This document shows positions 19,770 through 43,992 of a stretch of DNA of 64,000 nucleotides, one piece after another. The number at the start of each line of letters is the position of its first letter. Position 1 is the stretch's first letter. The DNA lies in IMG/VR virus record IMGVR_UViG_2901984674_000003; one strand, 5' to 3'. The notes under the pieces were generated by a model that worked only from the letters and a program-made list of their open reading frames with translations, searched no databases and had not been told where the DNA came from. The translations under genes and the position numbers were made by a program. This DNA is from a virus (Duplodnaviria > Heunggongvirae > Uroviricota > Caudoviricetes).

Positions 19770-20933
19770 GTGAAAATGATGATTCGAGTTCAGAAGGTAA
19801 GACTTTATCCAAATCAAACGATGAAAAAGGTGCTTGATGATCTATGTGATTATCGTAGATACTGTTGGAATCAAGGCTTAGCTTTATGGAATGATATGTA
19901 TGATAGTTCTTTGATTTTAGATGATAAAAAGTTAAAACCTAGTGAACACAAGGTTCGTAATGAGTTAGTATCTAATAAAGAAGACTGGCAATATCAATTA
20001 TCAGCTCGTTGTTTGCAATTAGCGATTTCCGATTTAGGTAAAGCTTGGAGTAAGTTTTTTAATAAATCACAAGTTGACTGGGGTAAGCCAAAATTCAAAT
20101 CTAAAAAAGCTCCTAGACAAGGGTTTAAAACTGATAGAGCTAAGATTATCAATGGTAAGCTAAGGCTTGACAAACCACACGGAATCAAAACTTGGTATGA
20201 TATTAGTTTTAAAGGTGCTAAGAGTTTAGATGGTGATTTAAAAGTTATCTCAGTTTACCGTGAAAATGGCAAGTACTGGGCTAGTTTACCTTTTGAAGTT
20301 GAAATAGCCAAGAAAACTAAAACTGGTAAGAAAACAGCAGTTGATATTAATGTCGGTCATTTTAACTATACCGAAGGTAAAGTTAATACACTACCTAATC
20401 ATTTAAGAAAACTCTATAAACGTATCAAACATTACCAACGTCAGTTAGCTAAAAAACGTGTCGTTAATGGAAGAAAAGCTACTCAATCGCATAATTATGT
20501 TAAAACGAGAGCCAAGTTACAACGTGATTATCGTAAAGTAACTAATATCCAACATGATATTGTGCATAAATTTACAACTAAATTAGCAAGTGATTACGAT
20601 AAGATAGCCATTGAAAATTTAGCAGTGAAGAAAATGCAGATGACGCACGTTGCATCTAAAGGCTTACAAAGATCATTATTTGGCTATTTTAGACAAATAT
20701 TAGCTTATAAAGCCGATTGGTATGGTAAGAAAATAGTCTTAGCAAGTCAATTTTATCCAAGCACACAAAGATGTTCCAAATGTGGTTATATTAAGACTGG
20801 CGAAGATAAAATTGGTCTTGATGGAAACCAAAAACATAAGACTAAACATAATGAATATATTTGTTATGAATGTGGTTCGGTTATGGATAGAGATGAAAAT
20901 GCAGTAAAAAATCTTCTGGCTTTAATAGCTTAG
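19770..20933 (+). CDS. tnpB: TnpB (IS605 OrfB family), copy 2
   Basis: 387-aa ORF with RuvC-I VDINVGH, RuvC-II IAIENL, a CSKCG...CYECG zinc finger and RuvC-III DRDENAVKNL. A hairpin-rich 3' flank at 20934-21060 is the likely right end or omega-RNA. Confidence 0.85.
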   Translation: MKMMIRVQKVRLYPNQTMKKVLDDLCDYRRYCWNQGLALWNDMYDSSLILDDKKLKPSEHKVRNELVSNKEDWQYQLSARCLQLAISDLGKAWSKFFNKSQVDWGKPKFKSKKAPRQGFKTDRAKIINGKLRLDKPHGIKTWYDISFKGAKSLDGDLKVISVYRENGKYWASLPFEVEIAKKTKTGKKTAVDINVGHFNYTEGKVNTLPNHLRKLYKRIKHYQRQLAKKRVVNGRKATQSHNYVKTRAKLQRDYRKVTNIQHDIVHKFTTKLASDYDKIAIENLAVKKMQMTHVASKGLQRSLFGYFRQILAYKADWYGKKIVLASQFYPSTQRCSKCGYIKTGEDKIGLDGNQKHKTKHNEYICYECGSVMDRDENAVKNLLALIA

Positions 20934-21445
20934 AAATATTATGGGGTGGGCTTACACCCTCAAGCTATCAGAGTTAGTCAATGTCATTACCCTCTAGTTA
21001 GGATATGGGAATACTAATGTTGACGGTAGTAAATAAAATTTAGGAAGGGAAAAATGTATTCTTTCTAATAATATAGAAATAATAGATATTTTTCTATATT
21101 ATTCTAATTTTATATAGCAGTAAGAGATGCGAATATTAATAATTTTCTAGTTTTTTTGAATAAATTATATCAAATGATACTACTTAAAAATACACTTCAC
21201 TCAACCTAATGGAGTTAACCAGTCAACAAGCTTTTAGAATTAATTCTAAAAGCTCTTGTGGACAACTTTACAACTCATTTGGCAGTCGTGCTTTGTTTCA
21301 AAAATCATTTGTAAGCTTCTTAAATTAGAAATTTAAGTTTAGCTTAGCTGGAACTAATCCGATTCCATCTGTACCATCAGTAAAAGCATTCGGTACTACT
21401 TTTTTAATATTTGTAAGATTCTTTATATTTCATTCGACTTACAAG

Positions 21446-21493
21446 TTGGCACGCATGGTTGCTGTAATAACGGTTCAATTCCGTTAGTGCTAA
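21446..21493 (+). ncRNA. tRNA-like minihelix (family 1, copy d), fused directly to scaffold S1
   Basis: TTGGCAC gcatggttgctgtaata ACGG-TTCAATT-CCGT ta GTGCTAA, followed by 'ttg' and then GAGGACGCTTG... Confidence 0.55.
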
Positions 21494-21496
21494 TTG

Positions 21497-21636
21497 GAGG
21501 ACGCTTGTTCTTGACAGCTCGGTAAATATTTCTAGCCTCTACGGTGTAACGTTGGTTAATCTAACGGTAAAACATCGCAAGCATGGAAAGTTCCCAAGAA
21601 GCTTGTGTCACTATTAAATACAGTTAGAAAACAACG
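21497..21636 (+). ncRNA. Conserved ~140-nt RNA scaffold S1 (tracrRNA/omega-RNA-like), start GAGGACGCTTGTTCTTGACAGCTCGG and internal GTTCCCAAGAAGCTT box
   Basis: One of six paralogous copies (21497, 23281, 33711, 34380, 36074, 37098). Each lies between a tRNA-like element and a repeat array. Confidence 0.6.
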
Positions 21637-21861
21637 GTTATGAACCTAGGTTAAATGACATAGGTGTAAGACCAGCAGTGTAAAAGCTTAAAAGCTGTTG
21701 TTGTTTTGAACTTAGGTTGAATGATGTAGGTTGAAGACTATATAAAATCTAGCATAGAAACTCTTGCATTTTGAACCTAGTTAAAATGACGTAAGTATAA
21801 GACAGAATACTGTATAGAGAGTTATGTTCTGAACTTAGCTAAAACAAACATAAGATAAGAC
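21637..21861 (+). CRISPR. CRISPR-like array A1: 4 repeats (36, 36, 35 and 33 nt, increasingly degenerate distally) with 30, 30 and 25-nt spacers
   Basis: The repeats are GTTATGAACCTAGGTTAAATGACATAGGTGTAAGAC, GTTTTGAACTTAGGTTGAATGATGTAGGTTGAAGAC, TTTTGAACCTAGTTAAAATGACGTAAGTATAAGAC and CTGAACTTAGCTAAAACAAACATAAGATAAGAC. The spacers are unique. Confidence 0.7.
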
Positions 21862-21982
21862 ATATCACAGGTTTATCTCACAAGCATTTTGGAATAAAAG
21901 CTAGTTCGATTCTAGCTATGCTTATTACCATTACTAAGCTTCGTAATGGTAACACACTTGCACTAAAACTATTACTTATAGG

Positions 21983-22046
21983 TTGGTAGAGTGGTTGTAT
22001 CGAGGTTCGATTCCTTGGCTACCAATAGGGTTGTCATAGACCCTAA
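21983..22046 (+). ncRNA. tRNA-like minihelix plus hairpin (family 1, copy e)
   Basis: TTGGTAG agtggttgtat CGAGG-TTCGATT-CCTTGG CTACCAA, then TAGGGttgtcatagaCCCTA. Confidence 0.5.
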
Positions 22047-22074
22047 AACTATTTCCTCTTATTGTAGGCTGCAA

Positions 22075-22335
22075 TGCCTTATTATATAAACTCCGTCAAC
22101 AGTAACCACCTACTAAAGTAGGTAACTTGTAGTAATACAAGTTTTGTTGTCTAGACTAAGTTCTTAGAGAACTACGTTATTTCAGTGATCATACCTAGAA
22201 ATGGTACCCTAGTTTCTAGCTCTATGAAGGCTCTGTAAACAAGCATAAGGTTAATGTGCTAGTCAACCTTGTAATAAGCTGAAATAACATTGTCGAAGGG
22301 TAACCACATGTATTTATTAACTCTGATAAATACGT
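22075..22335 (+). ncRNA. Orphan IscB omega-RNA-like scaffold (copy B) with no adjacent iscB ORF
   Basis: About 70% identical over about 240 nt to the region immediately upstream of iscB at 42370-42633. Shared blocks include CGTCAACAG(T)AACCACC(T)ACTAAAGTAGGT..CTTGTAG.AATACAAGTT and CGAAGGGTA(A)CCAC. The 5' flank (guide position) differs. Confidence 0.6.
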
Positions 22336-22378
22336 GATAAGGTCATTAATACCTTATATACTCCTTAAAATATTTGGT

Positions 22379-22443
22379 TGGCACGCATGGTTGCTATAAT
22401 AGTGGTTCGATCCCACTTGTGCTAATAGGGTGTAATAGCCCTA
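22379..22443 (+). ncRNA. tRNA-like minihelix plus hairpin (family 1, copy f)
   Basis: TTGGCAC gcatggttgctataat AGTGG-TTCGATC-CCACT t GTGCTAA, then TAGGGtgtaataGCCCTA. Confidence 0.5.
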
Positions 22444-22483
22444 ATGGTTGTATATTACTCCTTTTTAAAAAGTTACTTATAGG

Positions 22484-22549
22484 CTGGCACACATGGTTGT
22501 CTTGCAACAGTTCGATTCTGTTGGTGCCAATTGTAGCATTAAGCTACAA
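22484..22549 (+). ncRNA. tRNA-like minihelix (family 1, copy g)
   Basis: CTGGCAC acatggttgtcttgc AACAG-TTCGATT-CTGTT g GTGCCAA. Confidence 0.45.
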
Positions 22550-22627
22550 ACTCAAAACTTTTTCTCTTTAGAGTAATAAAAAAATTACTCTAACTAACAT
22601 AACTCCTTGATTTAATATATGATTTGG

Positions 22628-22696
22628 TTGGCACGTACGGTTACTTTATGGTAGTTCGACTCTACCAGTGCTAATTGCCTTTGGTAAAACGAAGGC
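22628..22696 (+). ncRNA. tRNA-like minihelix plus hairpin (family 1, copy h)
   Basis: TTGGCAC gtacggttactttatg GTAG-TTCGACT-CTAC ca GTGCTAA, then GCCTTTggtaaaacGAAGGC. Confidence 0.5.
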
Positions 22697-22761
22697 TAAA
22701 ATAACCCTTCTTATGGGGCAACAAAAATATCTTTCCTTTATAAGGTTTTTCTCTCAAATAG

Positions 22762-22831
22762 GTTGGCACGTACGGTTGCTTCTATAGTGGTTCGACTCCG
22801 CTAGTGCCAATAGGTTAGGGTTAATCCTAAC
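22762..22831 (+). ncRNA. tRNA-like minihelix plus hairpin (family 1, copy i)
   Basis: TTGGCAC gtacggttgcttctat AGTGG-TTCGACT-CCGCT a GTGCCAA, then GGTTAGGgttaatCCTAACC. Confidence 0.5.
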
Positions 22832-22993
22832 CGCCTACCTTATGTTATTTTTGGTGCTGGACTTTGCCTCCTGTACAAGGCTATGAAAAAAGTCAAAACG
22901 AACTGTTAAACAAACTAAGGCTGTACACCTGACAAGAGTGGGTGTTTGCAAGACAGTTCCTTGTATTTCGTTAGTTGGCCTTTGGAAATACAG

Positions 22994-23059
22994 TTGGTAA
23001 CACGGTTGTGACGTCAAGGTTCGACTCCTTGTTTACCAATAGGGCTAAGATAAGCCCTA
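22994..23059 (+). ncRNA. tRNA-like minihelix plus hairpin (family 1, copy j)
   Basis: TTGGTAA cacggttgtgacgt CAAGG-TTCGACT-CCTTG t TTACCAA, then TAGGGCTaagataAGCCCTA. Confidence 0.5.
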
Positions 23060-23084
23060 AATAAATCATAACATTAATTCAAGG

Positions 23085-23156
23085 TTGGCACGCATGGTTG
23101 CTATAATAACGGTTCGATTCCGTTAGTGCCAATAGCCTTTGCCAACGCAAGGGCTA
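23085..23156 (+). ncRNA. tRNA-like minihelix plus hairpin (family 1, copy k)
   Basis: TTGGCAC gcatggttgctataata ACGG-TTCGATT-CCGT ta GTGCCAA, then TAGCCTTTGccaacGCAAGGGCTA. Confidence 0.5.
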
Positions 23157-23215: not shown

Positions 23216-23277
23216 TAGCGATGTAGCTTAACGGTAGAGCAAGGCATGGGATACAGGTTCGACTCCTGTCATCGCTA
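23216..23277 (+). ncRNA. tRNA-like element (family 2, copy l): acceptor stem, D-arm and T-arm present, but the anticodon arm is collapsed to 13 nt. Fused to scaffold S2.
   Basis: TAGCGAT g TAGCTTAACGGTAGAGC aaggcatgggata CAGG-TTCGACT-CCTG tc ATCGCTA, followed by 'ttg' and then AAGGACGCTTG. Confidence 0.55.
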
Positions 23278-23280
23278 TTG

Positions 23281-23441
23281 AAGGACGCTTGTTCTTGACA
23301 GCTTGGTAAACATCTCTAACCTCTGCATAATCGCAACTTGCATTAGTTAGTTAGCGATTATGTAAGTCTAAAGAGTTCCCAAGAAGCTTATGTCAAAGTT
23401 AAATATAGGTTTTGAGCCTAGTTGAAAGCATAAGCTAAGAC
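23281..23441 (+). ncRNA. Scaffold S2 plus a single degenerate repeat (GGTTTTGAGCCTAGTTGAAAGCATAAGCTAAGAC). The guide position runs into the RBS and start of ORF 23462.
   Basis: Paralogous to S1, S3, S5 and S6. The lone repeat ends at 23441 and is followed by TAAATGATTATATCAAGGAGGTGGTT, which is the 5'UTR and GTG start of the next gene. Confidence 0.5.
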
Positions 23442-23461
23442 TAAATGATTATATCAAGGAG

Positions 23462-24217
23462 GTGGTTAAAATCATTACTCGAGATTATGCAATCAAAAAA
23501 TTCAACGCAATTTTAAACAATGTTAATAACGGTGGCACTGACGTATATGAAGTAACCAGTGCCAATATTTTTAGCTTATCTAAGGCTTTAAAATACATCA
23601 ATCAAGTAGATCCTAACACGGTTTTGTGGCAGCATACACCAACGCATCACGTAGCTTGTGTGTACGTAAAACAAAACACAGGCTTTGCTTATAACCGAGA
23701 TTATTTAGACTTGATTGCTAACGGTATCGACAGTGAAGAAAAGTTTAGAGAAGCTTGGCGACAAAGGAATGGCAAAAATACGAGGGGGCATTTTCCTGCA
23801 ATTGAAAAGAGTGCTACTAAAAGCCAACGAGTTAAGCATGAATCTTACATTGTTGCTGACTTAAATTCAGAAAATCCTAACTCTAAGATTCCAGGTAGCC
23901 TAAGTCCTAATCACGTTGATAGAACACACTTAATTTCATCGCAGATTACAGGCATTGAAAGACACAAGGGTTTACTTATTGATTTTGACAGTTGGCTAAA
24001 CCGTACACCAATGAACACGTTTGAAACTTACATTTTACGTATGTCAAACAAGCAAGACATTATTTGGTTAGCGTTTGTTTGGAGAGAAAACGATGGTTTA
24101 CATTGGAAGTACACAATGCTAGATAACCAAGGTACGATTCTACGTGAACGAGAATGGATAGACGATCGTTGGACTTACATTTGGAAATACGACCCTTATC
24201 AAGAAAATATCGACTAG
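23462..24217 (+). CDS. Hypothetical protein, possibly a non-specific nuclease-like fold (weak)
   Basis: 251 aa with a GTG start after an AAGGAGG RBS. VDRTHLISSQ...LN loosely resembles the DRGH motif of EndA/NucA-type nucleases. Low-confidence assignment. Confidence 0.4.
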   Translation: MVKIITRDYAIKKFNAILNNVNNGGTDVYEVTSANIFSLSKALKYINQVDPNTVLWQHTPTHHVACVYVKQNTGFAYNRDYLDLIANGIDSEEKFREAWRQRNGKNTRGHFPAIEKSATKSQRVKHESYIVADLNSENPNSKIPGSLSPNHVDRTHLISSQITGIERHKGLLIDFDSWLNRTPMNTFETYILRMSNKQDIIWLAFVWRENDGLHWKYTMLDNQGTILREREWIDDRWTYIWKYDPYQENID

Positions 24218-29751: not shown

Positions 29752-32700
29752 GTGACACAATTGCTAACAAAACCAGAAGATAAAAAAGTAAATGATGCAA
29801 TTAATAAATTAAACTCGCAAGAGTACGTAGGAGTTTTAAATAATTTAGCATCATCTGTAATGAGGCAGACAATCTCTGCACCAAATGAAGCAACAGTTGC
29901 CTCTATATTTGAAAGAGAGTTGTACTATTTTGTTAAAAAAGAATTTGATATTACATTAAATATAGAAAAAGAAGTGACTTCCCAAGACCTTGCTATCCAT
30001 AATTTCAAAGGAAGAATTGATGCTATTACGACAAATTTAGTTATCGAGTATAAAAAGCCAGAGAAGTTACGCAAAGACAAAGATATAAGAAAAGCTCAAA
30101 CGCAGTTATCAGACTACTTAAAACAATTGCGGAAAAATAACGAAAACTATTTTGGAATTATTACTGACGGAAGTTTTTATGTCAGTGTCTACTTTATAAA
30201 AGGCAGTTTAAAGTATGATGCGATACGTCAAATTGACGGAGCTTTTTTCATTACTTTGATAAAATCAATTTTAGGCACTAATAAGAAGCAATTAGTTTCT
30301 CGGAATATTATTGACGATTTTTCTCTTGAGGGTCACTCAGTTAGTGAACTTAGTAATCTTCAAAAAGAGTTGTTTAGATGCTTAAATAATGAAATGAAAT
30401 CTGAAAAGGTACTAATGCTATTTGACGAATGGATGGACATCTTTCACTTAAGTTTTAATGATGATGGGAAAAGTAATACGATTATGGAGCGTAGGGATTC
30501 TCTTTCTAAGGTTTTAGGTGTCCCTATCGAAAATAACGAACAAGAGTACCAAGGACTTTTTGCGTTGCAAACGGCATATGCCATTTTGGTTAAATGCTTT
30601 GCCTTAAAAATTATTCCTAAAATTGGTTTCAACAGTGATATAGTTTATTTTTCTGATTTATTGGAACAATCACCTAATAATATAAAAAAACTATTTTCTC
30701 AAGTTGAAGATGGCTACACTTTTAATGCGAGCAATATAATCAATCTTATTGAAGGTGATTTCTTTTCTTGGTATCTTGATGATTCTATTTGGTCAGAATC
30801 AATTGCACAATCAATTAAATCAATCCTTGTTAAGATAAACTCTTATTCAGACGCATCTTTATCATATCAGTTTGAAACACTAGATTTATTCAAAGAACTT
30901 TATATGAATGTAATGCCCCAACCTGTACGAAAAGCTTTTGGGGAGGTCTTTACTCCAGATTGGTTGGCTGATAATGTTGTTACAACCTGTTTAGAAATGA
31001 TTGATAATGAACAATGGACTTTTCTTGACCCAACATCAGGTTCAGGCACTTTTGTTTTTAAGGCAATTGAAAAAATTGTGGAAAGATTACTTCTTGATGG
31101 AAGAAGTAATAAGTATATTTTAGAACAAATACTCTCTCGAGTACACGGTATAGATTTATCACCGTTATCTGTTCTAACAGCTAGAGTTAGCTTTTTATTA
31201 GCAATTAGACCATTTATTGATGATAATAATATGGAAATCGAGATTCCAATATATCTAGGTGACTCTGCCCGTCTACCCTTAATAACTAAATTTAACGATA
31301 AGTCTTTTGTCTCATATAGTATTGCCACACGTCAGGGAGACATTAATTTAACATTACCATTGAGCTTTGTTGAATCTCCTGATTTTGTTAGAACTGTAAG
31401 ACAATGGCAAATGTTAGTAAAAGCAGAACACGTTGATTTACTTTCTAACGCAATAAAAAAGCAATTTGCTTGCGATGAAGATATTAATCATTTTGAAAAG
31501 GAAATACTATCATTCAGTAATCAATTAGTTTCGCTTCATAAAAAAATTGGGACGGAATATGGATTAAAGTTATTACAAACTTTATTTTACCAGCACGGAT
31601 AAAGAATATTGATATTATTGCTGGTAATCCGCCATGGGTTAAATGGGAAAATCTTCCCTCAATGTATGCAAATAAGATTAAGAATGTTGCTGGTGAAAGA
31701 GAACTATTTTCTAAAAAGAATAAGGGCCTAGGTGGGGGAATTAACTTAAATCTTGCAGCCCTTATATCGAATGTAACCGCAGATAATTGGTTAAGTAATG
31801 AAGGGGTTCAAGCGTTCTTGATGCCAGATACTTTCTTAAATTCCGATTCATATGAAGGTTGGAGAAATTTCCCAAGTACAAAAGAAAATAGTATGTTTTT
31901 AGCTAGAATAGATGATTGGTCAAATTCAGGTTCTCCATTTAAGCCAGTACAAGAGAAGTTTTTAACGTATTTTATAGTTAAAAATCCGTATAGTTCAACT
32001 TTAGTTAAGTATAATAAAAAATTTCCTAAAGGAATGAATATTCTTGATATCAATTCAAATAAATCATGGAGAGATGTAAAGAAATACTTCTCAAAAGAAA
32101 AAGGTTTATTGGTGCAATTATCCGATTCTAGCAATAGGTTTAGTAGAATATATAATGCTACATTGGATGATGTTGAAAAGCTGAAATTATTGTATGGCCA
32201 AAATGATTATAAGCCACGCCAAGGGGTTGAATTAACACCTAGAGAAGTTTACGTTTTTGAAAAAGATGATGATGGAACTTATCGAAACCTTGATATAAAA
32301 GGTACAAAAATTAAACCCAATCATTTTGAAAAACTCAAATTTGAAAAAAATATTATAAGACCATTGCTTCAAAGTAAACAAATAGGCGCATTTTCCATAA
32401 AAAATAGAGATAACATTCAATATGGTTTCTATCCATACGACGAAAAAGCAGATATAATTCCGATGGAAGCTTTGGCTGATAAATATCCTGCGATGTTAAA
32501 TTATCTCCTTGAACAAAAAGAGTTTATTGATAAGCAATCTGAAAGAAGTAAAACTATGTCCAGAGGTAGTGAATTTTATGCTCTCTCCAAAGTCGGAAGT
32601 TATACATCTTTTAAATATGCAGTTGCATTTCGGGATAATACTAAGATGGTGGCATCGTTTATAGACAACTCAAAAGATGGAATGATACCTGTAAAACATG

Positions 32701-33005
32701 CACCTTTTATTAGTGTCGATAAAAATGGTATACCCTTAACTAAAGATGAAGCAAAATATTTAACTGGGGTTATGAATATGCCAATAGTAAATACGTATTT
32801 TAAGACGACTTATTCTGATCGTTCATTTAGTATTAATTTTGATATGATGATACCAAAATATAAAAAGAATAAATTTCAAAAAGAAATTGTTAAATTAGTT
32901 ACATTTGCTTTGAATAGCAATAATGAGAACGAAAAAAAAGAGATTTCTAAACAAATTGAAGTTTTATATTTTGACATGTTAGATGAAATGGGAAAAGGAA
33001 GGTAA
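29752..33005 (+). pseudogene. Type IIG (MmeI-like) restriction-modification enzyme split into two ORFs (29752..31602 and 31542..33005) by a -1 frameshift at an A7 tract (31540-31546)
   Basis: ORF1 carries a PD-ExK-like motif (RIDAI...VIEYK) and SAM-binding motif I (FLDPTSGSGTFV). ORF2's frame opens at 31542 and encodes IIAGNPPW (motif IV) upstream of its first ATG (31662). Inserting one A in the A7 run fuses the frames into ...HKKNWDGIWIKVITNFILPARIKNIDIIAGNPPW.... Confidence 0.6.
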
Positions 33006-33066: not shown

Positions 33067-33494
33067 ATGCTCTTTGTGTAAACTGGTATATAGTTCCCAT
33101 AAAAAAAGCTAATCATGATTTTAAATAATCATAACTAGCTTATACACCACAATAGTCTTAAACATTCACGCTTGAGGGCAAGCAGGTCGCAACTGTTTGT
33201 CCTCTTTTCATATACAATAATACATGGCATGGATCCAAAAGTAAAGAAAAACAAAAGAAGATATACAAGCTATTATAGACTTTGCTAACAAACAACTAAA
33301 AAAACGATACTAGAATGTTATTAACACATTGCAGTAGTTTATGTTAAAATAGAACTAGCAAAAAACAGTTAAGGCTCCTTAATGTTTGTTTTGCTGTTGA
33401 AAAAGAAAGTCACATCTAGGGTTACCTAAGCTTGTGGCTTTTTTTATTTTTTAACTTTTTTGAATTTTATTTTAAAAAAGTATACAAAAACATT

Positions 33495-33657: not shown

Positions 33658-33707
33658 TAGCGATGCCAAACGGTAGATCAATGCAGGTGCAATTCCTGCC
33701 ATCGCTA
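33658..33707 (+). ncRNA. tRNA-like minihelix (family 2, copy m; acceptor plus T-arm), fused to scaffold S3
   Basis: TAGCGATG ccaaacggtagatcaat GCAGG-TGCAATT-CCTGC CATCGCTA, followed by 'ttg' and then GAGGACGCTTG. Confidence 0.5.
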
Positions 33708-33710
33708 TTG

Positions 33711-33852
33711 GAGGACGCTTGTTCTCGACAGCTTGGTTAATATCTTTGACCTCTGTATAATCGCAAATTGCATTAGTTTGTTTACGATTATGCAAGTCTG
33801 AAGAGTTCCCAAGAAGCTTATGCCACAATTAAATACAGGTTAGAAAATAACG
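33711..33852 (+). ncRNA. Scaffold S3 (tracrRNA/omega-RNA-like)
   Basis: GAGGACGCTTGTTCTCGACAGCTTGG...GAGTTCCCAAGAAGCTTATG...AAATACAGGTTAGAAAATAACG. Confidence 0.6.
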
Positions 33853-34284
33853 GTTCTGAACCTAGGCTAAATGACATAGGTTGAAGACTTACGGTAGAAT
33901 GTATCTTCAATTTTTCTAGTTCTGAACCTAGGCTAAATGACATAGGTTGAAGACGCTACTACTCATTGTGAACTTAAACTGGTTGTTCTGAACCTAGGCT
34001 AAATGACATAGGTTGAAGACAGTACTAGCGGCTCATCTGCATATATACTAGTTCTGAACCTAGTTGAATTGACATAGGTGTAAGACCATTGAAGTTCGTA
34101 TGGTGGATATCATCTAGTTCTGAACCTAAGTTAAATAACATAGGTGTAAGACATAGGTTTAATGATTGCTCCAATGGTTGAAGTTCTGAGCCTAAGTTAA
34201 ATGGCATAGGTGTAAGACTCACGTTTATGTGAGTGATTATAATTCACAGTTCTGAGCCTAAGTTAAATGACATAGGTGCAAGAC
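33853..34284 (+). CRISPR. CRISPR-like array A3: 7 direct repeats of 36 nt separated by six unique 30-nt spacers, at an exact 66-nt period
   Basis: Repeats start at 33853, 33919, 33985, 34051, 34117, 34183 and 34249. Consensus is GTTCTGAACCTAGGCTAAATGACATAGGTTGAAGAC, with 1-5 nt drift in distal units. The repeat contains the palindrome AACCTAGGTT and a potential CCTAGG/CATAGG hairpin. Spacers are non-repetitive and differ in GC content from one another. Confidence 0.85.
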
Positions 34285-34314
34285 TGAAATCATGGGCTTA
34301 ATTAAAGTCAAAAC

Positions 34315-34376
34315 AACGATGTAGCTCAATGGTAGAGCAAAGCGAGGCGACGTAGGTTCGATTCCTACCATCGTTA
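34315..34376 (+). ncRNA. tRNA-like element (family 2, copy n; D-arm and T-arm present, anticodon arm reduced to 13 nt), fused to scaffold S4
   Basis: AACGATG TAGCTCAATGGTAGAGC aaagcgaggcgac GTAGG-TTCGATT-CCTAC CATCGTT a, followed by 'ttg' and then GAGGGTGCTTG. Confidence 0.55.
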
Positions 34377-34379
34377 TTG

Positions 34380-34505
34380 GAGGGTGCTTGCTCTTCACAG
34401 TTTGGTTAACATCTTCGCAAACAAAGTTGCTGATTGCATTTCTTTGTTGAAGAGTTCCCAAAAAGCGCTGATAGCACAAATAAAGACGTCCATTGTGGAA
34501 GACTA
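34380..34505 (+). ncRNA. Divergent scaffold S4 plus one degenerate repeat (...CCATTGTGGAAGAC), immediately upstream of tnpB-3
   Basis: GAGGGTGCTTGCTCTTCACAGTTTGG...GAGTTCCCAAAAAGCGCTG is paralogous to the other scaffolds at about 75% identity. Confidence 0.45.
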
Positions 34506-34544
34506 ATGTAGTGTAGTCAGCTGAAAGACTATACATAAATTACG

Positions 34545-36026
34545 TTGGTGTTTAAAAAGGAGTTGGAAAAAATGGAAGAAAAAGTTTTAGAAAGTCGTAG
34601 AATTAGAATTTATCCTACTAAGGATCAACAAGCATATTTAACGTTTAATATGTTTGCTAATATCAAGATGTGGAACGCATTACTAGCTGAAGTTTATAAG
34701 CCAGTTAGTGAGTTAGATGAAGTTCAAGCTTTACCTAGAAACAAACAAAGTAAAGAAGTTTATAAACGCATTGAAAGAATGTCATGGGAAGAGCAACGTG
34801 ATTTGTTCAAAGGTTTACGTGGACTTTCGACTAAGGCTATTTACGATGCTGATGAAACTGTGTTTGAAAGTGGTTGGACTTTAAAAGACGCTGATACTAG
34901 CATGTATAGTTACACTTTACGTACTTTAAAAACAGCGATGAGCAACCATTTGAAAAACCCTAGACACTTTGGTATTCCTAGGTTTAAGACAACAATGGAC
35001 GTTGAAAATCAAGGTAGTTATACCTCAGGCGCTCATGTTTGTGAAATCAGTGAAGACGGCAAGTACCTTAGAGTAGGTAAATTGAAAAGATTTAAGTTAG
35101 GCTTAATTGAGATGGCTAATCACTATCCTAGTGACGGACGTTTGTATAAAGTAACAATTAAGCATGAATCCAGCGATACTTGGTATGTATCATTTGTGTT
35201 TGAACAAGCTGAGCATACAGTAAAACGTCCTAGAACTGGTTTAGCAGCTGGTATTGACTTAAACGTAACAGGTAACAGTCATATTGTTTTACAAGATGGT
35301 ACTAGATACCAATTGCCATATGACAAAATCAGAAAATTAGAACAAAAGATTGAAAAAGAAAACGTAAAACGTAGTCGCAAGTATGAACAATGGAAAAAAG
35401 AGGTTGCAATCATTGAAGAAGACAATAAAAAATCCTTAATTCCAAAGCATGTTCCTACTTTAGCCGAACGTAGCAATTACCAAAAGAACAAAAAGAAGAT
35501 TGCTAAGTTACATTTACGCATTAAAAACTTGAAAAAAGACTATATTAAAAAAACATGTTCAAAGCTTGCTAATGAATATGATGTAATCGTTATGGAAGAC
35601 CTAGCTGTTTCAGATATGGAAAAGAATAAATACCGTGCTAGAGCAATCACTAGATCAAACTTCCGTGAAATTAGAGATACGCTTACTTATATGATGGACT
35701 GGGCTGATAAAAAGATTGTGTTTATTGATCGTTGGTCACCAACTTCAAAGCGTTGCCATACTTGTGGTTACATTAAGCACAACCTTAAATTAAGCGACCG
35801 TAAGTGGACTTGCCCTATCTGTAATTCTCACCATGATCAAGACATAAACGCAGCTAAAAACATCTTAGATGAAGGCTTAGACTTGCTAGACAAAATGAAT
35901 GATTCTTGCAAGAAATGTGGGCATGAGCGTACGGTTATTACAACAGACGAAAAGTGGACATGTACAAAGTGTGGAGCTAAAAATAAAACCACACCTAAAG
36001 AAGAAAATAGTAGCGATGTAGCCTAA
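34545..36026 (+). CDS. TnpB/Cas12-like RNA-guided nuclease (493 aa) flanked on both sides by scaffold plus CRISPR-like array modules. Candidate type V-U-like effector.
   Basis: The TnpB-type N-terminus (RIRIYPTKDQQAYL...), RuvC-I (AAGIDLNVTG), RuvC-II (VIVMEDLAV), zinc finger CHTCG...CPICN and RuvC-III (HDQDINAAKNI), plus an extra C-terminal CKKCG...CTKCG finger. Its stop codon lies inside tRNA-like element o. Confidence 0.85.
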   Translation: MVFKKELEKMEEKVLESRRIRIYPTKDQQAYLTFNMFANIKMWNALLAEVYKPVSELDEVQALPRNKQSKEVYKRIERMSWEEQRDLFKGLRGLSTKAIYDADETVFESGWTLKDADTSMYSYTLRTLKTAMSNHLKNPRHFGIPRFKTTMDVENQGSYTSGAHVCEISEDGKYLRVGKLKRFKLGLIEMANHYPSDGRLYKVTIKHESSDTWYVSFVFEQAEHTVKRPRTGLAAGIDLNVTGNSHIVLQDGTRYQLPYDKIRKLEQKIEKENVKRSRKYEQWKKEVAIIEEDNKKSLIPKHVPTLAERSNYQKNKKKIAKLHLRIKNLKKDYIKKTCSKLANEYDVIVMEDLAVSDMEKNKYRARAITRSNFREIRDTLTYMMDWADKKIVFIDRWSPTSKRCHTCGYIKHNLKLSDRKWTCPICNSHHDQDINAAKNILDEGLDLLDKMNDSCKKCGHERTVITTDEKWTCTKCGAKNKTTPKEENSSDVA

Positions 36027-36070
36027 CGGTAAGGCAAGGTAACAGATGCAGGTTCGACTCCTACCATCGT
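36009..36070 (+). ncRNA. tRNA-like element (family 2, copy o) overlapping the last 6 codons and stop of tnpB-3; fused to scaffold S5
   Basis: TAGCGATG TAGCCTAACGGTAAGGC aaggtaacagat GCAGG-TTCGACT-CCTAC CATCGTTA, followed by 'tag' and then GAGGACGCTTG. Confidence 0.55.
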
Positions 36071-36073
36071 TAT

Positions 36074-36215
36074 AGGAGGACGCTTGTTCTCGACAGCTTG
36101 GTAAATATCTTTAACCTCTACAGTATCAGTTAGTTAATCTAGCAGAAAGATATTGCAAGTAAGAAGAGTTCCCAAGAAACTTATGTCGAAATTAAATATA
36201 GGTTAGAAAACAACG
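36074..36215 (+). ncRNA. Scaffold S5, in the position expected for the tnpB-3 omega-RNA/tracr
   Basis: GAGGACGCTTGTTCTCGACAGCTTGGTAAATATCT...GAGTTCCCAAGAAACTTATG...AAATATAGGTTAGAAAACAACG. It is 3'-adjacent to tnpB-3, as omega-RNAs are for TnpB. Confidence 0.6.
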
Positions 36216-36450
36216 GTTCTGAACCTAGGTTAAATGACATAGGTGTAAGACATACTCGTGGTGTCTAATTATAAGACGTTCGTTCTGAACCTAGGTTAAA
36301 TGACATGGGTGCAAGACCGTGCCTTCGATTCCTTCGCTTGGGAGATCGTTCTGAACCTAGGTTAAATGACATAGGTGTAAGACGTCTCAGGAGGAAAAAA
36401 TCAAAAATATGAGTTCTGAACCTAGTTAGAATGACACATAGGCGCAAGAC
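36216..36450 (+). CRISPR. CRISPR-like array A5: 4 repeats (36, 36, 36 and 37 nt) with three 30-nt spacers
   Basis: Repeats at 36216, 36282, 36348 and 36414 match GTTCTGAACCTAGGTTAAATGACATAGGTGTAAGAC, and the last is degenerate. Spacer 2 is GC-rich (CGTGCCTTCGATTCCTTCGCTTGGGAGATC) and spacer 3 resembles a gene start (CAGGAGGAAAAAATCAAAAATATGAG). Confidence 0.8.
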
Positions 36451-36479: not shown

Positions 36480-37094
36480 AACGTTCAAATAACGCTTCAA
36501 GCATAACCGATTGCATAAGGGCTTTAATCAAGTCTTATCGGACATCTGCCTGTAATTCGTAGTAGGTATAGTCTGAGTGATAGCTTAGACAAGCCGAGAG
36601 ATGATTGGTAACAATTATCAAACCTAGTAAAAGCTAGGACGTTTGGTAGGTGTGTGGAAATGTGTGACGTTAGTGCTTTGCTAACCGTTGGCACTGGATA
36701 AAATAGACGCTCACGGTGTGAGAATAACCCATTGGCAGCTTAGTGTGGTAGCTAAGTGATGTGATGGGAATAACCAAAGACAGTGTTTGCCTTGACGTTT
36801 AGGAAACTAAGCTATAACAACGGAAACAAGAACGAGTAGGGTAATGGCATCGAGATTACAGTAATTTCGCTACTGGACTTGAAATCCACATGCGACGATT
36901 AAGACAAATAAAATAATTCTGAATGATTGCCTGAAAGTTGGTACTTATCATAGTAGCCACGTTATATAAAGCAAAAGGAAGTAGCAAGGTAGCTCCTTGT
37001 TGCTCAGACCTTTTGAAACGTTCGCATAATAAGCGGTAGCACATTGTAAGCAGAGTGAAAGCTCGTGCTTGAAGTGTTGTTTGAGCGTTAAATA
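36480..37094 (+). other. About 600-nt ORF-free, relatively GC/purine-rich region between array A5 and scaffold S6. Candidate structured ncRNA or decayed gene.
   Basis: There is no ORF of 60 aa or more on the + strand, and composition differs markedly from the AT-rich intergenic DNA nearby. It occupies the slot where the other units carry a tRNA-like element. Confidence 0.3.
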
Positions 37095-37097
37095 TTG

Positions 37098-37222
37098 GAG
37101 GACGCTTGTTCTCGACAGCTTGGTAAAAATCTCTAGCCTCTACGGTGTTAGCTAGTTAATCTAGCAATAAAGCATTGCAAGCATGGAGAGTTCCCAGGAA
37201 GCTTATGTCAAAATTAAATATA
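37098..37222 (+). ncRNA. Scaffold S6
   Basis: GAGGACGCTTGTTCTCGACAGCTTGGTAAAAATCTCTAGCCTCTACGG...GAGTTCCCAGGAAGCTTATG. It is closest to S1. Confidence 0.55.
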
Positions 37223-37380
37223 GGTTCTAAACCTAGTTGAATTGACGTAGGTGTAAGACCTTAGATTTTTAGGAGTTGTTGTTCTGAACCTAATTGAATT
37301 AGCATAGGTATAAGACGAGGCTGTCTATTTGCTAATTAAATAATAAGTTTTGAACTTAGTTAAATGGCACAAGCAAAGAC
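37223..37380 (+). CRISPR. CRISPR-like array A6: 3 repeats (37, 36 and 34 nt) with 21- and 30-nt spacers
   Basis: GGTTCTAAACCTAGTTGAATTGACGTAGGTGTAAGAC, GTTCTGAACCTAATTGAATTAGCATAGGTATAAGAC and GTTTTGAACTTAGTTAAATGGCACAAGCAAAGAC. Confidence 0.65.
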
Positions 37381-37645
37381 AGGTCATATATTCGTTAATT
37401 TAAATATAATATCAAAATTCCAATCCATAGCTAAATCCAGCTGTGGATCAAGCTTTTTTATTGACAATTGAATGAAAAATAGTAATAATGTAATTGCAGG
37501 TAGAAATACACTGACTACTTTATGCAATGTCGACATGCACGAGGCACCTAGTTGATAGGTGTTTTTTATTTGTTTTTATAAACCTGCCACAATAATAATA
37601 ACCAAACTAAAAGCCACATCTACTTTAGGTGTGGCTCAAATTCTT

Positions 37646-42349: not shown

Positions 42350-42633
42350 TGCTAGAGCGTTATGGTACGCGTCAACAGAACCACCGACTAAAGTAGGTGG
42401 CTTGTAGAAATACAAGTTGGTTGATTAGCCTAAGTTTTAAGTAACTACGTTAGGGTTGAATAGATAGGTACTTTGGAATACCACCCTAGTTCCAAACACT
42501 ACGGTTGATTATTAAACAGAGTTGAGTTCAGACTCAGTGTAATTAACATTAAACCAACCTATAACATTGGCGAAGGGTACACACGTACCAACTCTATGTT
42601 AGGTGCGAATTACGATTGAAAGGAGCTGGCATA
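42350..42633 (+). ncRNA. IscB omega-RNA (copy A): a guide-position flank plus about 250-nt scaffold immediately upstream of iscB
   Basis: The scaffold begins CGTCAACAGAACCACCGACTAAAGTAGGTGG. It is homologous to the orphan copy at 22094 and to the fragment at 2017-2047. IscB omega-RNAs are encoded 5' of the ORF. Confidence 0.6.
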
Positions 42634-43992
42634 ATGTCAGAAATTAAAAAAGTTGATTATATTTATGTAGTAGACTCCAACGGTACACCACTCATGCCAA
42701 CTTCAAGATTAGGCATGGTTCGCCGTTGGTTAAAAACAGGTCAAGCAAGATGGTTCGGAAATAGTCGTAAGACTATCCAATTTGTTAGACCTGTTACTAC
42801 AAATATTCAAAAATTAACACTAGGAGTAGATGCTGGCTTTCACTTAGGTTTATCCGTTGTAGGTAATCAACGTGAATATTATGCAGCTGAAAGCTTAAGA
42901 AAGTCAGAAAAAGATCGAATTACTAGCCGAAGAGAGTTAAGAAGAACTAGAAGGAATCGTTTAAGATACCGTAAGGCTAGATTTGATAATCGCAGACGCA
43001 AAGACGGTTGGTTAGCTCCTAGTATTCAACATAGATTAGATTTTACAATTAAAGAAATCAAACGCTTATATACGTTTTTGCCAATTACTAACTTAGTGGT
43101 TGAAGTTACACCGTTTGACAACCAAAAACTACTAAATCCAAGCATTAAAAGCTGGCAGTATCAAAAAGGCAAGATGTATGGCTTTAAGACCATTAAAGAT
43201 TACTTACTAGCTAGAGATAATTATCGTGATGCTTTAGATGGCAAACAATATCCAGCTAGTAAATTAAGAGTCCATCACTTAGTACAAAGAAAAGATGGTG
43301 GATCTAATCAGCCAGATAATTTGGTTTTACTGTCAGATGTTAATCATAATCAAGCTAATCACAATAACGGTGTCTTGGCTAAATTAAGACAAAATCGCCA
43401 AAAAAGCATCGATTATCGTGGAGCTTATTTTATGAGTATTTTAGCAACAAGATTAAGTGATTATTTTGATGAATATACAACAACTCAAGGTTATCTAACG
43501 GCTAATTTAAGACAAAAGTATCGAATTGGAAAATCGCACTTAAATGATGCGTTTATTATTGCTGGTGGAACTGATGTAACACTTAGAACAAGCAACGTTT
43601 ACTCAAGGCAAAAACTAAGAAACAACAATCGAAGTTTACAGAAGTTCTATGATGCTAAATATATTGATCGTCGTGATGGTAAACAAAAAACTGGTAAAGA
43701 GTTAAGTTCAGGTAGAACTAGACGTTCAAGAGAGCTTAATTACACCAATTTAAGACAATTTAGAAAAGAAAAAGTTAAAAAAGGTCGTGTTTCGATTAGA
43801 AGAAATCACTACCAATTAAGACCACATGATGTTGTGTTAAATACCAAAACTAACAGAATTGAAAGAGTTAAAAGTGTTAATAGTAGAGGAAAAAACGTTA
43901 TTCTTCAAACTGGTAAATCTAGCACAGTTAAAAACATTGTTAGCTTATATCATGTAAATGGAATGTTAGAAACGAAAGTGGAAAATATTTAG
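42634..43992 (+). CDS. iscB: IscB-family RNA-guided nuclease (RuvC-HNH; Cas9-ancestor type), 453 aa
   Basis: ATG 42634 after an AAAGGAG RBS (the track uses TTG 42616). The ORF has an N-terminal PLMP-like segment (VVDSNGTPLMPTSRLGMVRRWLKTGQARW), RuvC-I (GVDAGFHLGLSVVG), an Arg-rich bridge helix (RRELRRTRRNRLRYR), RuvC-II (VVEVTPFDN), an HNH-like insert (RVHHLVQRKDGGSNQPDNLVLLSDVNHNQANH, with the Cys ligands absent) and RuvC-III (SHLNDAFIIAGG). Confidence 0.8.
   Translation: MSEIKKVDYIYVVDSNGTPLMPTSRLGMVRRWLKTGQARWFGNSRKTIQFVRPVTTNIQKLTLGVDAGFHLGLSVVGNQREYYAAESLRKSEKDRITSRRELRRTRRNRLRYRKARFDNRRRKDGWLAPSIQHRLDFTIKEIKRLYTFLPITNLVVEVTPFDNQKLLNPSIKSWQYQKGKMYGFKTIKDYLLARDNYRDALDGKQYPASKLRVHHLVQRKDGGSNQPDNLVLLSDVNHNQANHNNGVLAKLRQNRQKSIDYRGAYFMSILATRLSDYFDEYTTTQGYLTANLRQKYRIGKSHLNDAFIIAGGTDVTLRTSNVYSRQKLRNNNRSLQKFYDAKYIDRRDGKQKTGKELSSGRTRRSRELNYTNLRQFRKEKVKKGRVSIRRNHYQLRPHDVVLNTKTNRIERVKSVNSRGKNVILQTGKSSTVKNIVSLYHVNGMLETKVENI

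Follow-up and report, generated by a model that had tools for sequence, protein, structure and literature searches.

The 64,000-nucleotide (nt) stretch of DNA from IMG/VR record IMGVR_UViG_2901984674_000003 that was analyzed here (hereafter the window) carries, on the plus strand at positions 33853 to 34284, a repeat array designated A3, and the evidence well supports A3 as a genuine, recently active CRISPR array. The reading favored here, with a probability of roughly 0.75, is that A3 is a working array of a compact TnpB-derived system, similar to those called TranC or type V-U, that is located on a plasmid of Ligilactobacillus salivarius and is used against other plasmids. The window is part of a large plasmid-like element of this species that is probably linear; it encodes RepA_N, ParA, a DnaB-like helicase, and a protein of the SPFH/flotillin family. 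It is most similar, at 95.8% identity, to 'unnamed2', a linear plasmid of 166.6 kb from L. salivarius ZSA5, and two IMG/VR contigs carry the effector gene that adjoins A3 at 99% and 95% identity. The A3 repeat family occurs in four arrays (A1, A3, A5, and A6) placed around this effector gene, always on the plus strand.

The seven 36-nt repeats of A3 begin at positions 33853, 33919, 33985, 34051, 34117, 34183, and 34249, giving a start-to-start spacing of exactly 66 nt, as had been stated in the original prediction, which was made from the sequence alone. With up to three mismatches allowed, the window has five copies of the repeat, whereas none of 100 dinucleotide shuffles contained a single one. 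The six internal spacers are each 30 nt long, unique, and devoid of a second copy in the window, also as predicted, but the total of six was one too few: a seventh, terminal spacer of 30 nt (34285 to 34314, plus strand) is kept in all four related elements and ends exactly at the 5' end of a tRNA-like element that begins at 34315. Constant repeats alternating with unique spacers of near-constant length are what a CRISPR array comprises, and the spacers are pieces neither of one contiguous sequence nor of the ends of insertion sequences (IS). The near-identity reported for the proximal end of the array was confirmed in that the three leader-proximal repeats are identical, but the drift toward the distal end, put at 1 to 5 nt, proved to be 5 to 6 nt (repeats 4 through 7 are 6, 5, 6, and 5 nt off repeat 1). 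Two further descriptions had to be abandoned. The perfect palindrome AACCTAGGTT that had been ascribed to the A3 repeat is found only at 21643, 36222, 36288, and 36354, and belongs to arrays A1 and A5; folding of the A3 repeats predicts an ACCUA...UAGGU hairpin. Likewise, spacers described as GC-rich have a GC content of 27 to 40% in A3 (mean 33%) versus 35% for the window, and a value of 57% is attained by one spacer only, in A5.

Spacers of these arrays (27, then 34 concatenated spacers) were searched by BLAST and, as would be anticipated for an active array, matched foreign DNA, with matches found only in plasmids of L. salivarius and other lactobacilli. Six protospacers were well matched (28 to 30 of 30 positions), all of them in L. 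salivarius plasmids. A3 spacer 1 matches pMP1046B (29/30) and A3 spacer 2 matches several sites in a tandem unit of about 500 bp beside the ParM and Fic genes of pMP118-type megaplasmids (28/30). The remaining four are spacers of sister arrays: the third spacer of A5 matches pMP118 (29 of 30 columns, with one gap), and three spacers of sister elements match small resistance plasmids (30/30), a 247-kb megaplasmid (30/30), and plasmids of 34 to 145 kb (29/30). Upstream of the protospacers, TT is present at positions -4/-3 in all six and T at -5 in five; given a TT background of 0.126, the probability of the former is about 4e-6, or 7e-5 after correction for position and side. In the 3' flank of the same six protospacers nothing is conserved. 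With the arrays read on the strand of the effector gene, the predicted guide polarity would be repeat followed by spacer with a T-rich protospacer adjacent motif (PAM) on the 5' side, the arrangement of TnpB and Cas12 nucleases. Together with the adjoining nuclease of TnpB/Cas12 lineage and the polarized spacer differences described below, these plasmid matches with their 5' T-rich PAM bear out the view that A3 is an active, type V-like array.

No match was obtained when 27 spacers were compared with 50,697 phage records, so the system is not primarily directed against phages, and no self-targets other than shared array positions were detected in the window or the related loci. The targets instead indicate inter-plasmid competition, as has been described for type IV and V-M plasmid systems (PMC11656645). 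A spacer of a related locus (L002) matches the ROOL gene of sister elements at 29 of 30 positions with TT at -4/-3, and the ROOL gene of L002 itself differs from that spacer at four positions, three of which are PAM-proximal. Searching the whole target plasmids added extra sites within tandem repeats and no new independent protospacers. Two weak matches (28/30 to a Lactiplantibacillus GH70 gene and 26/30 to TnpB genes) lacked the TT motif and were not counted. The tandem unit itself was seen in two pMP118-type megaplasmid sequences (L009, 300 to 1850, and L024, 700 to 1730), where three to four copies of about 500 bp, each with a 66-amino-acid open reading frame (ORF), lie between ParM and a Fic gene. 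This region, which may be an iteron or centromere region, is targeted both by A3 spacer 2 and by one sister-element spacer, and its tandem copies provide several target sites for one spacer.

Comparison of the window with three elements that are 95 to 99% identical to it showed that the arrays are dynamic and that spacer content changes among natural variants. Of 72 repeat-following 30-mers in these four elements, 57 are distinct, and only leader-distal spacers are held in common: the spacer adjoining the effector gene is present in all four elements and the one before it in three, and scaffold-proximal spacers are strain-specific in every element. The arrays are, in other words, not invariant across related strains, and the differences have the polarity that a comparison between strains had been proposed to reveal. 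Further, the proximal repeats are identical within a strain (the window has three such copies, L012 four, and L013 three) and vary from strain to strain, the pattern expected if the first repeat is duplicated at each insertion.

The effector gene is located between A3 and A5 (34572 to 36026, plus strand) and encodes, from a likely ATG start at 34572, a 484-amino-acid protein of the TnpB family of RNA-guided nucleases. The protein contains the Pfam domains OrfB_IS605 and Cas12f1-like_TNB and scores 178.9 bits against the NCBIfam model guided_TnpB ('RNA-guided endonuclease TnpB family'; cutoff 100); of the NCBIfam models, none for a named Cas12 family was passed and only the generic TnpB cutoff was exceeded. 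In an alignment of 16 clade members, the RuvC residues D229, E342, and D424 and the zinc-finger cysteines are invariant. Type V and TranC systems likewise consist of one effector from the TnpB/Cas12 lineage, in which RuvC is intact, and an adjoining array. An IS200/IS605 TnpB (OMEGA) would be accompanied by TnpA, transposon ends, and one guide that the insertion site determines; here no tnpA is found beside the effector gene in the annotated relative, and arrays with exchangeable spacers take the place of the one guide. Against PDB, the best match is ISDra2 TnpB (E=7e-28), followed by LaTranC (E=6e-16). Since the LaTranC match is limited to the C-terminal RuvC part and ISDra2 TnpB is the closer of the two, the effector represents a lineage separate from LaTranC, to which none of the named Cas12 proteins is as close as ISDra2 TnpB. 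In addition to the canonical zinc finger of TnpB, the C-terminus (residues ~443 to 484, positions 35898 to 36023) carries an extra CxxC...CxxC motif, CKKCGHERTVITTDEKWTCTKCGAKNK, and the last codons overlap a tRNA-like element. The effector is single-copy in the window. Its relatives form about 23 clusters at 47 to 95% identity, after which identity drops to roughly 30%, the level of ordinary TnpBs. A search of 185,579 species-representative genomes returned no member of this clade and only distant TnpBs of Hydrogenobacter; members of the clade are rare and occur only on mobile elements and in metagenomes.

One homolog, 48% identical to the effector, was observed in a prophage-like region (L004) beside a 1066-amino-acid SIR2_2 protein. 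This locus (1 to 324, 1835 to 1925, and 7527 to 7726) includes a type I-B-looking mini-array with a repeat of approximately GAATCTATTTAACTTAAGAGGAATGTAAA and, after a homologous scaffold, an array of 28-nt repeats and 33-nt spacers. The latter was considered as a second case of mimicry of a host array, given its type I-E-like hairpin CCACGCATGTGGGG, and was not used as support because it is apparently antisense to the effector, a placement that depends on what we take to be the conventional orientation of I-E repeats. A conserved partner gene was also considered. The large gene upstream of A3 encodes an Eco57I-like restriction-modification enzyme that is not homologous to the SIR2 protein of L004, and a partner gene is therefore not conserved.

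Immediately 5' of every array is a module of about 140 nt, and two further copies of this module are present without an array. For A3, this 'leader' spans 33708 to 33852 on the plus strand. It starts with ATTGGAGGACGCTTGTTCT and includes an invariant GTTCCCAAGAA. An alignment of 27 distinct module copies, drawn from the window and from eight related loci and analyzed with RNAalifold, yielded four helices in which 13 of 24 predicted pairs show compensatory changes on both sides. The leader therefore appears, from its conservation and covariation, to be a structured scaffold RNA like an ωRNA or trans-activating CRISPR RNA (tracrRNA). The last hairpin of the scaffold (CTTATGTCA...ATAGGTT) is homologous to the repeat hairpin and, in L017, the terminal hairpin equals the 3' part of the repeat, with a 30-nt guide directly behind it, ahead of the first full repeat. 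For these two reasons, a scaffold and a single repeat together resemble a TnpB ωRNA, of which the array would be a serial duplication of the last module. An architecture of this kind has been described for TranC and type V-U systems (PMC10691335; bioRxiv 10.64898/2026.03.27.714800; PMC13565253). As for anti-repeat pairing between scaffold and repeat, there is a 9-bp candidate, CYTATGTCA:TGACATAGG, that has the sequence of each hairpin's own stem and is invariant in relatives, so that it proves nothing.

Between A3 and the effector gene is a diverged scaffold copy (34377 to 34545, plus strand; identified by alignment and kept in L001, L012, and L013) that lacks the variable hairpin. It carries a solitary pseudo-repeat (…GTGGAAGAC) and a conserved guide-like stretch and is placed immediately upstream of the ribosome-binding site (RBS) of the effector gene. 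This copy could be an autoregulatory or ancestral single-guide ωRNA.

The arrays and scaffolds are separated by elements resembling tRNA, of which three are matched by Rfam (34315 to 34376, 52 bits; 36012 to 36072, 41.9 bits; and 23217 to 23277), all on the plus strand. In the first two, of which the second overlaps the stop codon of the effector gene, the acceptor, D, and T arms are present in full and 7 to 8 nt stand in place of the 17-nt anticodon arm (8 nt in 34315 to 34376, which folds as a cloverleaf minus this arm). A complete cloverleaf of the kind that defines a tRNA gene is therefore lacking, and ARAGORN called no tRNA in the window. Reduced units consisting of an acceptor and a T-arm precede the remaining scaffold copies. 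Among these is a degenerate unit at 33658 to 33707 immediately 5' of the A3 scaffold, which was recognized by reading the sequence, falls below the Rfam threshold, and aligns with the copies that do score. Exactly 30 nt separate the last repeat of A3 from the start of the tRNA-like element downstream, and the discriminator base of this element is immediately followed by the next scaffold, an arrangement that is the same in L012 and L013. This placement fits trimming of the last CRISPR RNA (crRNA) and release of the scaffold by RNase P and RNase Z, and the elements are accordingly treated here as putative sites of tRNA-type processing. In the searchable literature only engineered equivalents of such natural punctuation of guides by tRNA were found. 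Further upstream, at 21440 to 23140, is a tandem series of about eight units of ~50 nt that resemble tRNA minihelices (GGTTGGCACGCATGGTTGC...GGTTCGATTCC...GTGCCAAT), spaced ~100 to 230 nt apart and each followed by a short GC-rich hairpin. A minihelix unit also precedes several scaffold copies, and neither ARAGORN nor Rfam at E<=1 called the units of the series.

Between A5 and the scaffold that follows it is a copy of the large RNA called ROOL (36483 to 37083, plus strand; Rfam 241 bits), and ROOL, scaffold, and array are likewise adjacent in L002, L012, L013, and L017. In L002 (ROOL at 4743 to 5308) and L017 (4072 to 4639), ROOL is directly upstream of the scaffold-array-effector unit, and in L012 (11914 to 12522) and L013 (12033 to 12643) it is close to arrays. 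Terminator-like hairpins flank the block at 33174 to 33204 and at 37423 to 37636. Inside the block, the matches of a terminator scan were confined to the scaffold, a spacer, the T-arm of a tRNA-like element, and the opposite strand, as a single long transcript would allow.

On this evidence, the following sequence of events can be proposed. The block would probably be transcribed as one long plus-strand RNA (about 33.5 to 37.4 kb) comprising, in order, a tRNA-like element, scaffold, A3, a tRNA-like element, the diverged scaffold, the effector, a tRNA-like element, scaffold, A5, ROOL, scaffold, and A6. Host RNase P and RNase Z would cut at the tRNA-like elements that lack an anticodon arm, thereby freeing the scaffold RNAs and setting the 3' end of the last crRNA. 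Each crRNA would consist of a repeat hairpin with a 30-nt guide on its 3' side, and the ~140-nt scaffold, as the remainder of an ancestral ωRNA, may act in cis for the first repeat and in trans, in the manner of a tracrRNA, for the others. So guided, the 484-amino-acid RuvC nuclease is predicted to cut DNA bearing a 5' TTTNN-type motif in other plasmids of L. salivarius, among them the megaplasmid of pMP118 type and small resistance plasmids, and would thus serve as a weapon in plasmid competition. New spacers would enter at the scaffold-proximal end, where Cas1-Cas2-Csn2 of the host may insert them in trans.

The last of these steps addresses the point on which the original prediction ended, namely how spacers could be acquired without Cas1 and Cas2 encoded in cis. 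Their absence was confirmed, as the annotation of about 163 kb of the 166.6-kb relative includes neither cas1 nor cas2 nor cas4 and none of these lies within 5 to 10 kb of any clade member. Moreover, a tblastn search of 331 kb of these elements with a confirmed II-A set of Cas1, Cas2, Csn2, and Cas9 gave nothing at E<1, although a Cas1 very distant from type II could escape such a search. Type II-A systems with 36-nt repeats and 30-nt spacers are common in L. salivarius (PMC11288051), and the geometry of A3 is identical to theirs. The published L. salivarius II-A repeat, GTTTCAGAAGTATGTTAAATCAATAAGGTTAAGACC (PMC10715006), when aligned in the same orientation, agrees with the plasmid repeat at 27 to 28 of 36 positions (z=5.9-7.0; the score was reached by no shuffle). 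The plasmid repeat bears no resemblance to streptococcal II-A repeats, and clade repeats from other hosts show little or no similarity to the L. salivarius II-A repeat. The likeness extends to the junction between leader and array. The last 11 nt of the A3 scaffold, AGAAAATAACG (33842 to 33852), resemble the end of a II-A leader: in a metagenome II-A locus (cas9-cas1-cas2-csn2-leader-array) the leader ends in AAAGTAACG followed by GTTTC, and the A3 scaffold ends in AAAATAACG followed by GTTCT, with eight of the last nine leader bases as in the II-A locus (…ATAACG/GTT). Arrays with this junction are the longest (7, 7, 5, and 2 repeats), and scaffold copies without the AGAAAAYAACG insert carry 0 to 3 degenerate repeats, an association that is suggestive, as the arrays are homologous across the four related elements and are not independent observations. 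The repeat is nevertheless not the II-A repeat itself. It differs mainly in the middle, where it has an extra hairpin (-8.8 kcal/mol, versus -0.3 for the II-A repeat).

Given the lack of adaptation genes and the resemblance to type II-A in repeat length, spacer length, repeat ends, and junction, the chance that spacers are loaded in trans by the II-A machinery of the host is put at about even. There is precedent for loading in trans, as type IV-A3 systems acquire spacers via the type I-E system of their host (bioRxiv 10.1101/2023.06.23.546257). The simplest reading of the comparison would be a chimeric repeat, with ends and length like those of II-A for the host integrase and a hairpin of ωRNA type for the nuclease. 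The fuller proposal, in which such a chimeric repeat (with II-A ends, length, and junction and an ωRNA-hairpin middle) permits loading in trans and tRNA mimics, possibly with ROOL, punctuate the guide RNAs, is advanced tentatively and at somewhat less than even odds.

Several observations weigh against parts of this interpretation. Only 6 of about 57 spacers have database matches; a promoter scan of the block was not above chance; and the bases through which repeat and scaffold would pair are invariant, so that covariation gives no information on their pairing. The comparison with II-A was made at the level of the species, and one variant of the II-A locus (L031) has another leader end, AAATTAATA. 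Part of the repeat core, GTTAAATGACATAGGT, already occurs in L019, a relative at 50% identity, so a share of the resemblance to II-A may be ancestral. The main difficulty is that protospacers for II-A acquisition are chosen by a PAM on the 3' side. With respect to the features of a II-A locus, namely an adjacent cas9 and tracrRNA and a 3' PAM, tblastn detected no cas9 on the element and the 3' PAM predicted for the species, NNaWNW, fits three of the six flanks (p=0.057), the clear signal being 5' TTTNN. A perfect 5' motif with a 3' fit of three in six would imply that both motifs are needed and selection acts, that the nuclease helps to choose protospacers, or that another integrase is involved. 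Finally, some differences between strains are due to recombination between repeats or to deletion rather than to gain: A3 in L001 has two repeats of which the first is a hybrid, the window's third A3 spacer sits in a different array in L012, and the spacer CGTGCCTTCG... is in different arrays in different strains.

Some of these observations lend weight to an explanation in which array, effector, and targets are as described and the spacers arrive by another route, whether an integrase of the element, capture dependent on the effector, Cas1-Cas2 of a host III-A or I-E system, or inter-plasmid recombination, with the likeness to II-A being ancestral or coincidental. The 5' T-rich PAM is unlike that predicted for Cas9-directed II-A acquisition, recombination clearly reshapes the arrays, the repeat core is shared with a distant relative, and many ORFs of the element have no known function. 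This explanation is nonetheless considered rather unlikely. The tight 36/30 geometry is that of II-A, whereas III-A spacers in the species are 30 to 44 nt and I-E arrays are 29/32; the similarity is concentrated where leader and repeat meet and at the ends of the repeat, holds specifically for the II-A repeat of L. salivarius, and is missing in relatives from other hosts; and unique proximal spacers behind identical copies of the first repeat are the footprint of an integrase and not of exchange. Further, the search of 331 kb of these elements yielded no Cas1-like sequence.

The resemblance to the host repeat, in sequence, 36/30 geometry, and orientation, could alternatively mean that A3 serves not the TnpB-like protein but the II-A system, as an orphan array used by host Cas9 or as a decoy RNA anti-CRISPR that soaks up Cas9 and tracrRNA or Cas1-Cas2; repeat mimics that act as RNA anti-CRISPRs are known on mobile elements (PMC10651486). 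However, the 5' two-thirds of the repeat, which would pair with tracrRNA, are the least conserved part, the plasmid repeat forms a hairpin where the II-A repeat is unstructured, and the protospacers carry a 5' T-rich motif of Cas12/TnpB type. Moreover, every array is fused to a scaffold RNA with a 3' hairpin homologous to the repeat, effector, scaffold, and array remain linked in relatives (L002, L017, and L020) with repeats that are not at all II-A-like, and a decoy would leave the real, plasmid-matching, strain-specific spacers unexplained, making this role very improbable. A similarly slight chance is given to a non-adaptive origin of the arrays, in which the 3' module of a TnpB ωRNA (the right end of the transposon and the guide) was tandemly duplicated and the arrays are relics of IS200/IS605-type transposition without a present immune or competitive role. 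Such an origin would account for the homology between the repeat and the terminal hairpin of the scaffold, for an effector that family thresholds place in TnpB and in no named Cas12, and for the many other TnpB and IscB copies on the element. It would not account for uniform 30-nt spacers that are unrelated to each other or to their flanks and match foreign plasmids with a consistent PAM, nor for polarized differences in content between elements that are 95 to 99% identical, and there is neither an adjacent TnpA nor a second copy of the effector in the window. A compact TnpB-derived CRISPR system directed at other plasmids thus remains the preferred reading.

The class of system to which A3 belongs has already been published. 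In common with TranC and type V-U systems (PMC10691335; bioRxiv 10.64898/2026.03.27.714800; PMC13565253; PDB 9jfo for LaTranC), it has an effector of TnpB-like size and sequence with an intact RuvC domain, short arrays of 36-nt repeats, no adjacent adaptation genes, a location on a mobile element, a scaffold RNA beside the array with a repeat-homologous 3' part, and a 5' T-rich PAM. It differs in possessing several arrays, which are distributed to either side of the gene and are each preceded by a separate scaffold copy in the same orientation, in being punctuated by tRNA-like elements and ROOL, and in a repeat and leader that mimic host II-A. Neither multiple scaffolded arrays, nor punctuation by tRNA-like elements or ROOL, nor mimicry of II-A was found described for TranC or V-U in the searchable papers. 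Type IV-A3 systems (bioRxiv 10.1101/2023.06.23.546257; PMC11656645) are likewise plasmid-borne, lack an adaptation module, hold spacers against competing plasmids, and have a repeat and leader compatible with a chromosomal system of the host, as acquisition in trans would require. They employ a multi-subunit complex with DinG rather than a single TnpB-like nuclease and an I-E donor rather than the II-A donor proposed here (Cas1-Cas2-Csn2, with Cas9-dependent choice of PAM). For A3, moreover, acquisition in trans is deduced from sequence, and the guide orientation and PAM side of the effector would be opposite to those of the donor system.

ISDra2-type TnpB of OMEGA systems (PDB 8bf8, 8exa, and 8h1j), the best protein match (E=7e-28), shares with the A3 system a guide RNA that starts at the 3' end of the gene and comprises a structured scaffold with a 3' guide, and a 5-nt T-rich 5' motif. 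The A3 effector is about 75 amino acids longer and has the additional C-terminal CxxC...CxxC, TnpA is not adjacent, no sign of transposon ends was seen, and arrays of 36-nt repeats with exchangeable 30-nt spacers that match foreign plasmids replace a single guide set by the insertion site. Engineered polycistronic tRNA-gRNA arrays (PMC7062760) provide the closest parallel to the tRNA-like punctuation, as tRNA-shaped units flank the guides, so that cellular RNase P and RNase Z could excise defined RNAs, and the boundaries agree to the nucleotide with the end of the spacer and the start of the scaffold. In the A3 locus, the units are natural, lack the anticodon arm, bracket whole arrays or scaffolds instead of each guide, and are putative in their processing.

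Dozens of CRISPR lineages derived from TnpB (V-U and TranC, and also V-M and V-F on plasmids) comprise arrays without adaptation genes, which poses the question of how spacers reach them. The A3 locus offers a concrete and testable answer in a culturable species with a characterized II-A system. If true, it would be the first case of adaptation borrowed across types, with type II machinery feeding a type V-like effector of opposite guide and PAM polarity, and its tRNA-like elements would be a natural counterpart of engineered tRNA-gRNA arrays. The locus also represents an early stage in the evolution of CRISPR, at which the repeat is still recognizable as the last hairpin of an ωRNA. In practical terms, it yields a 484-amino-acid nuclease with a short T-rich PAM and a defined scaffold and suggests a design for guide release by tRNA-like elements. 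It also points to inter-plasmid warfare in a probiotic species, with megaplasmids and small resistance plasmids (carriers of tetM, tetL, and lnuA) among the targets.

The remaining components of the system in the window, all on the plus strand, were located by repeat search and alignment. Downstream of the effector gene, a scaffold copy at 36073 to 36215, supported by alignment and covariation, precedes A5 (36216 to 36450), which comprises three good repeats and one degenerate 38-nt terminal repeat. Past ROOL, a scaffold copy (37092 to 37223) leads into the short degenerate array A6 (37224 to 37380). At a distance from the effector are a scaffold copy (21497 to 21636) with array A1 (21637 to 21861) and, at 23217 to 23442, the third tRNA-like element (23217 to 23277) with a scaffold copy and one solitary degenerate repeat. 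The 'guide' position of this last repeat (region 23217 to 23472) overlaps the RBS and GTG start of a 251-amino-acid ORF (23462 to 24217) that is just upstream of the RepA_N replication gene.

The Eco57I-like type IIG restriction-modification gene mentioned above is split in the window into two ORFs of 616 and 447 amino acids (29752 to 33005) and is a single gene of 1081 amino acids in the related plasmid (NZ_CP123973.1), and the window copy is probably a frameshifted pseudogene. At 19770 to 21023 are a separate canonical TnpB of 387 amino acids, which contains HTH_OrfB_IS605 and is unrelated to the array-associated effector, and behind it a 'Transposase-1 RNA' recognized by Rfam that is presumably the ωRNA of this TnpB. 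Further TnpB-family genes and two IscB genes are present on the related plasmid. Lastly, a full-length HEARO (IscB ωRNA; 129 bits) without an adjacent IscB ORF is embedded in the minihelix series at 22095 to 22307, and a second HEARO (42371 to 42584) occupies the normal position before an IscB gene (42616 to 43992).

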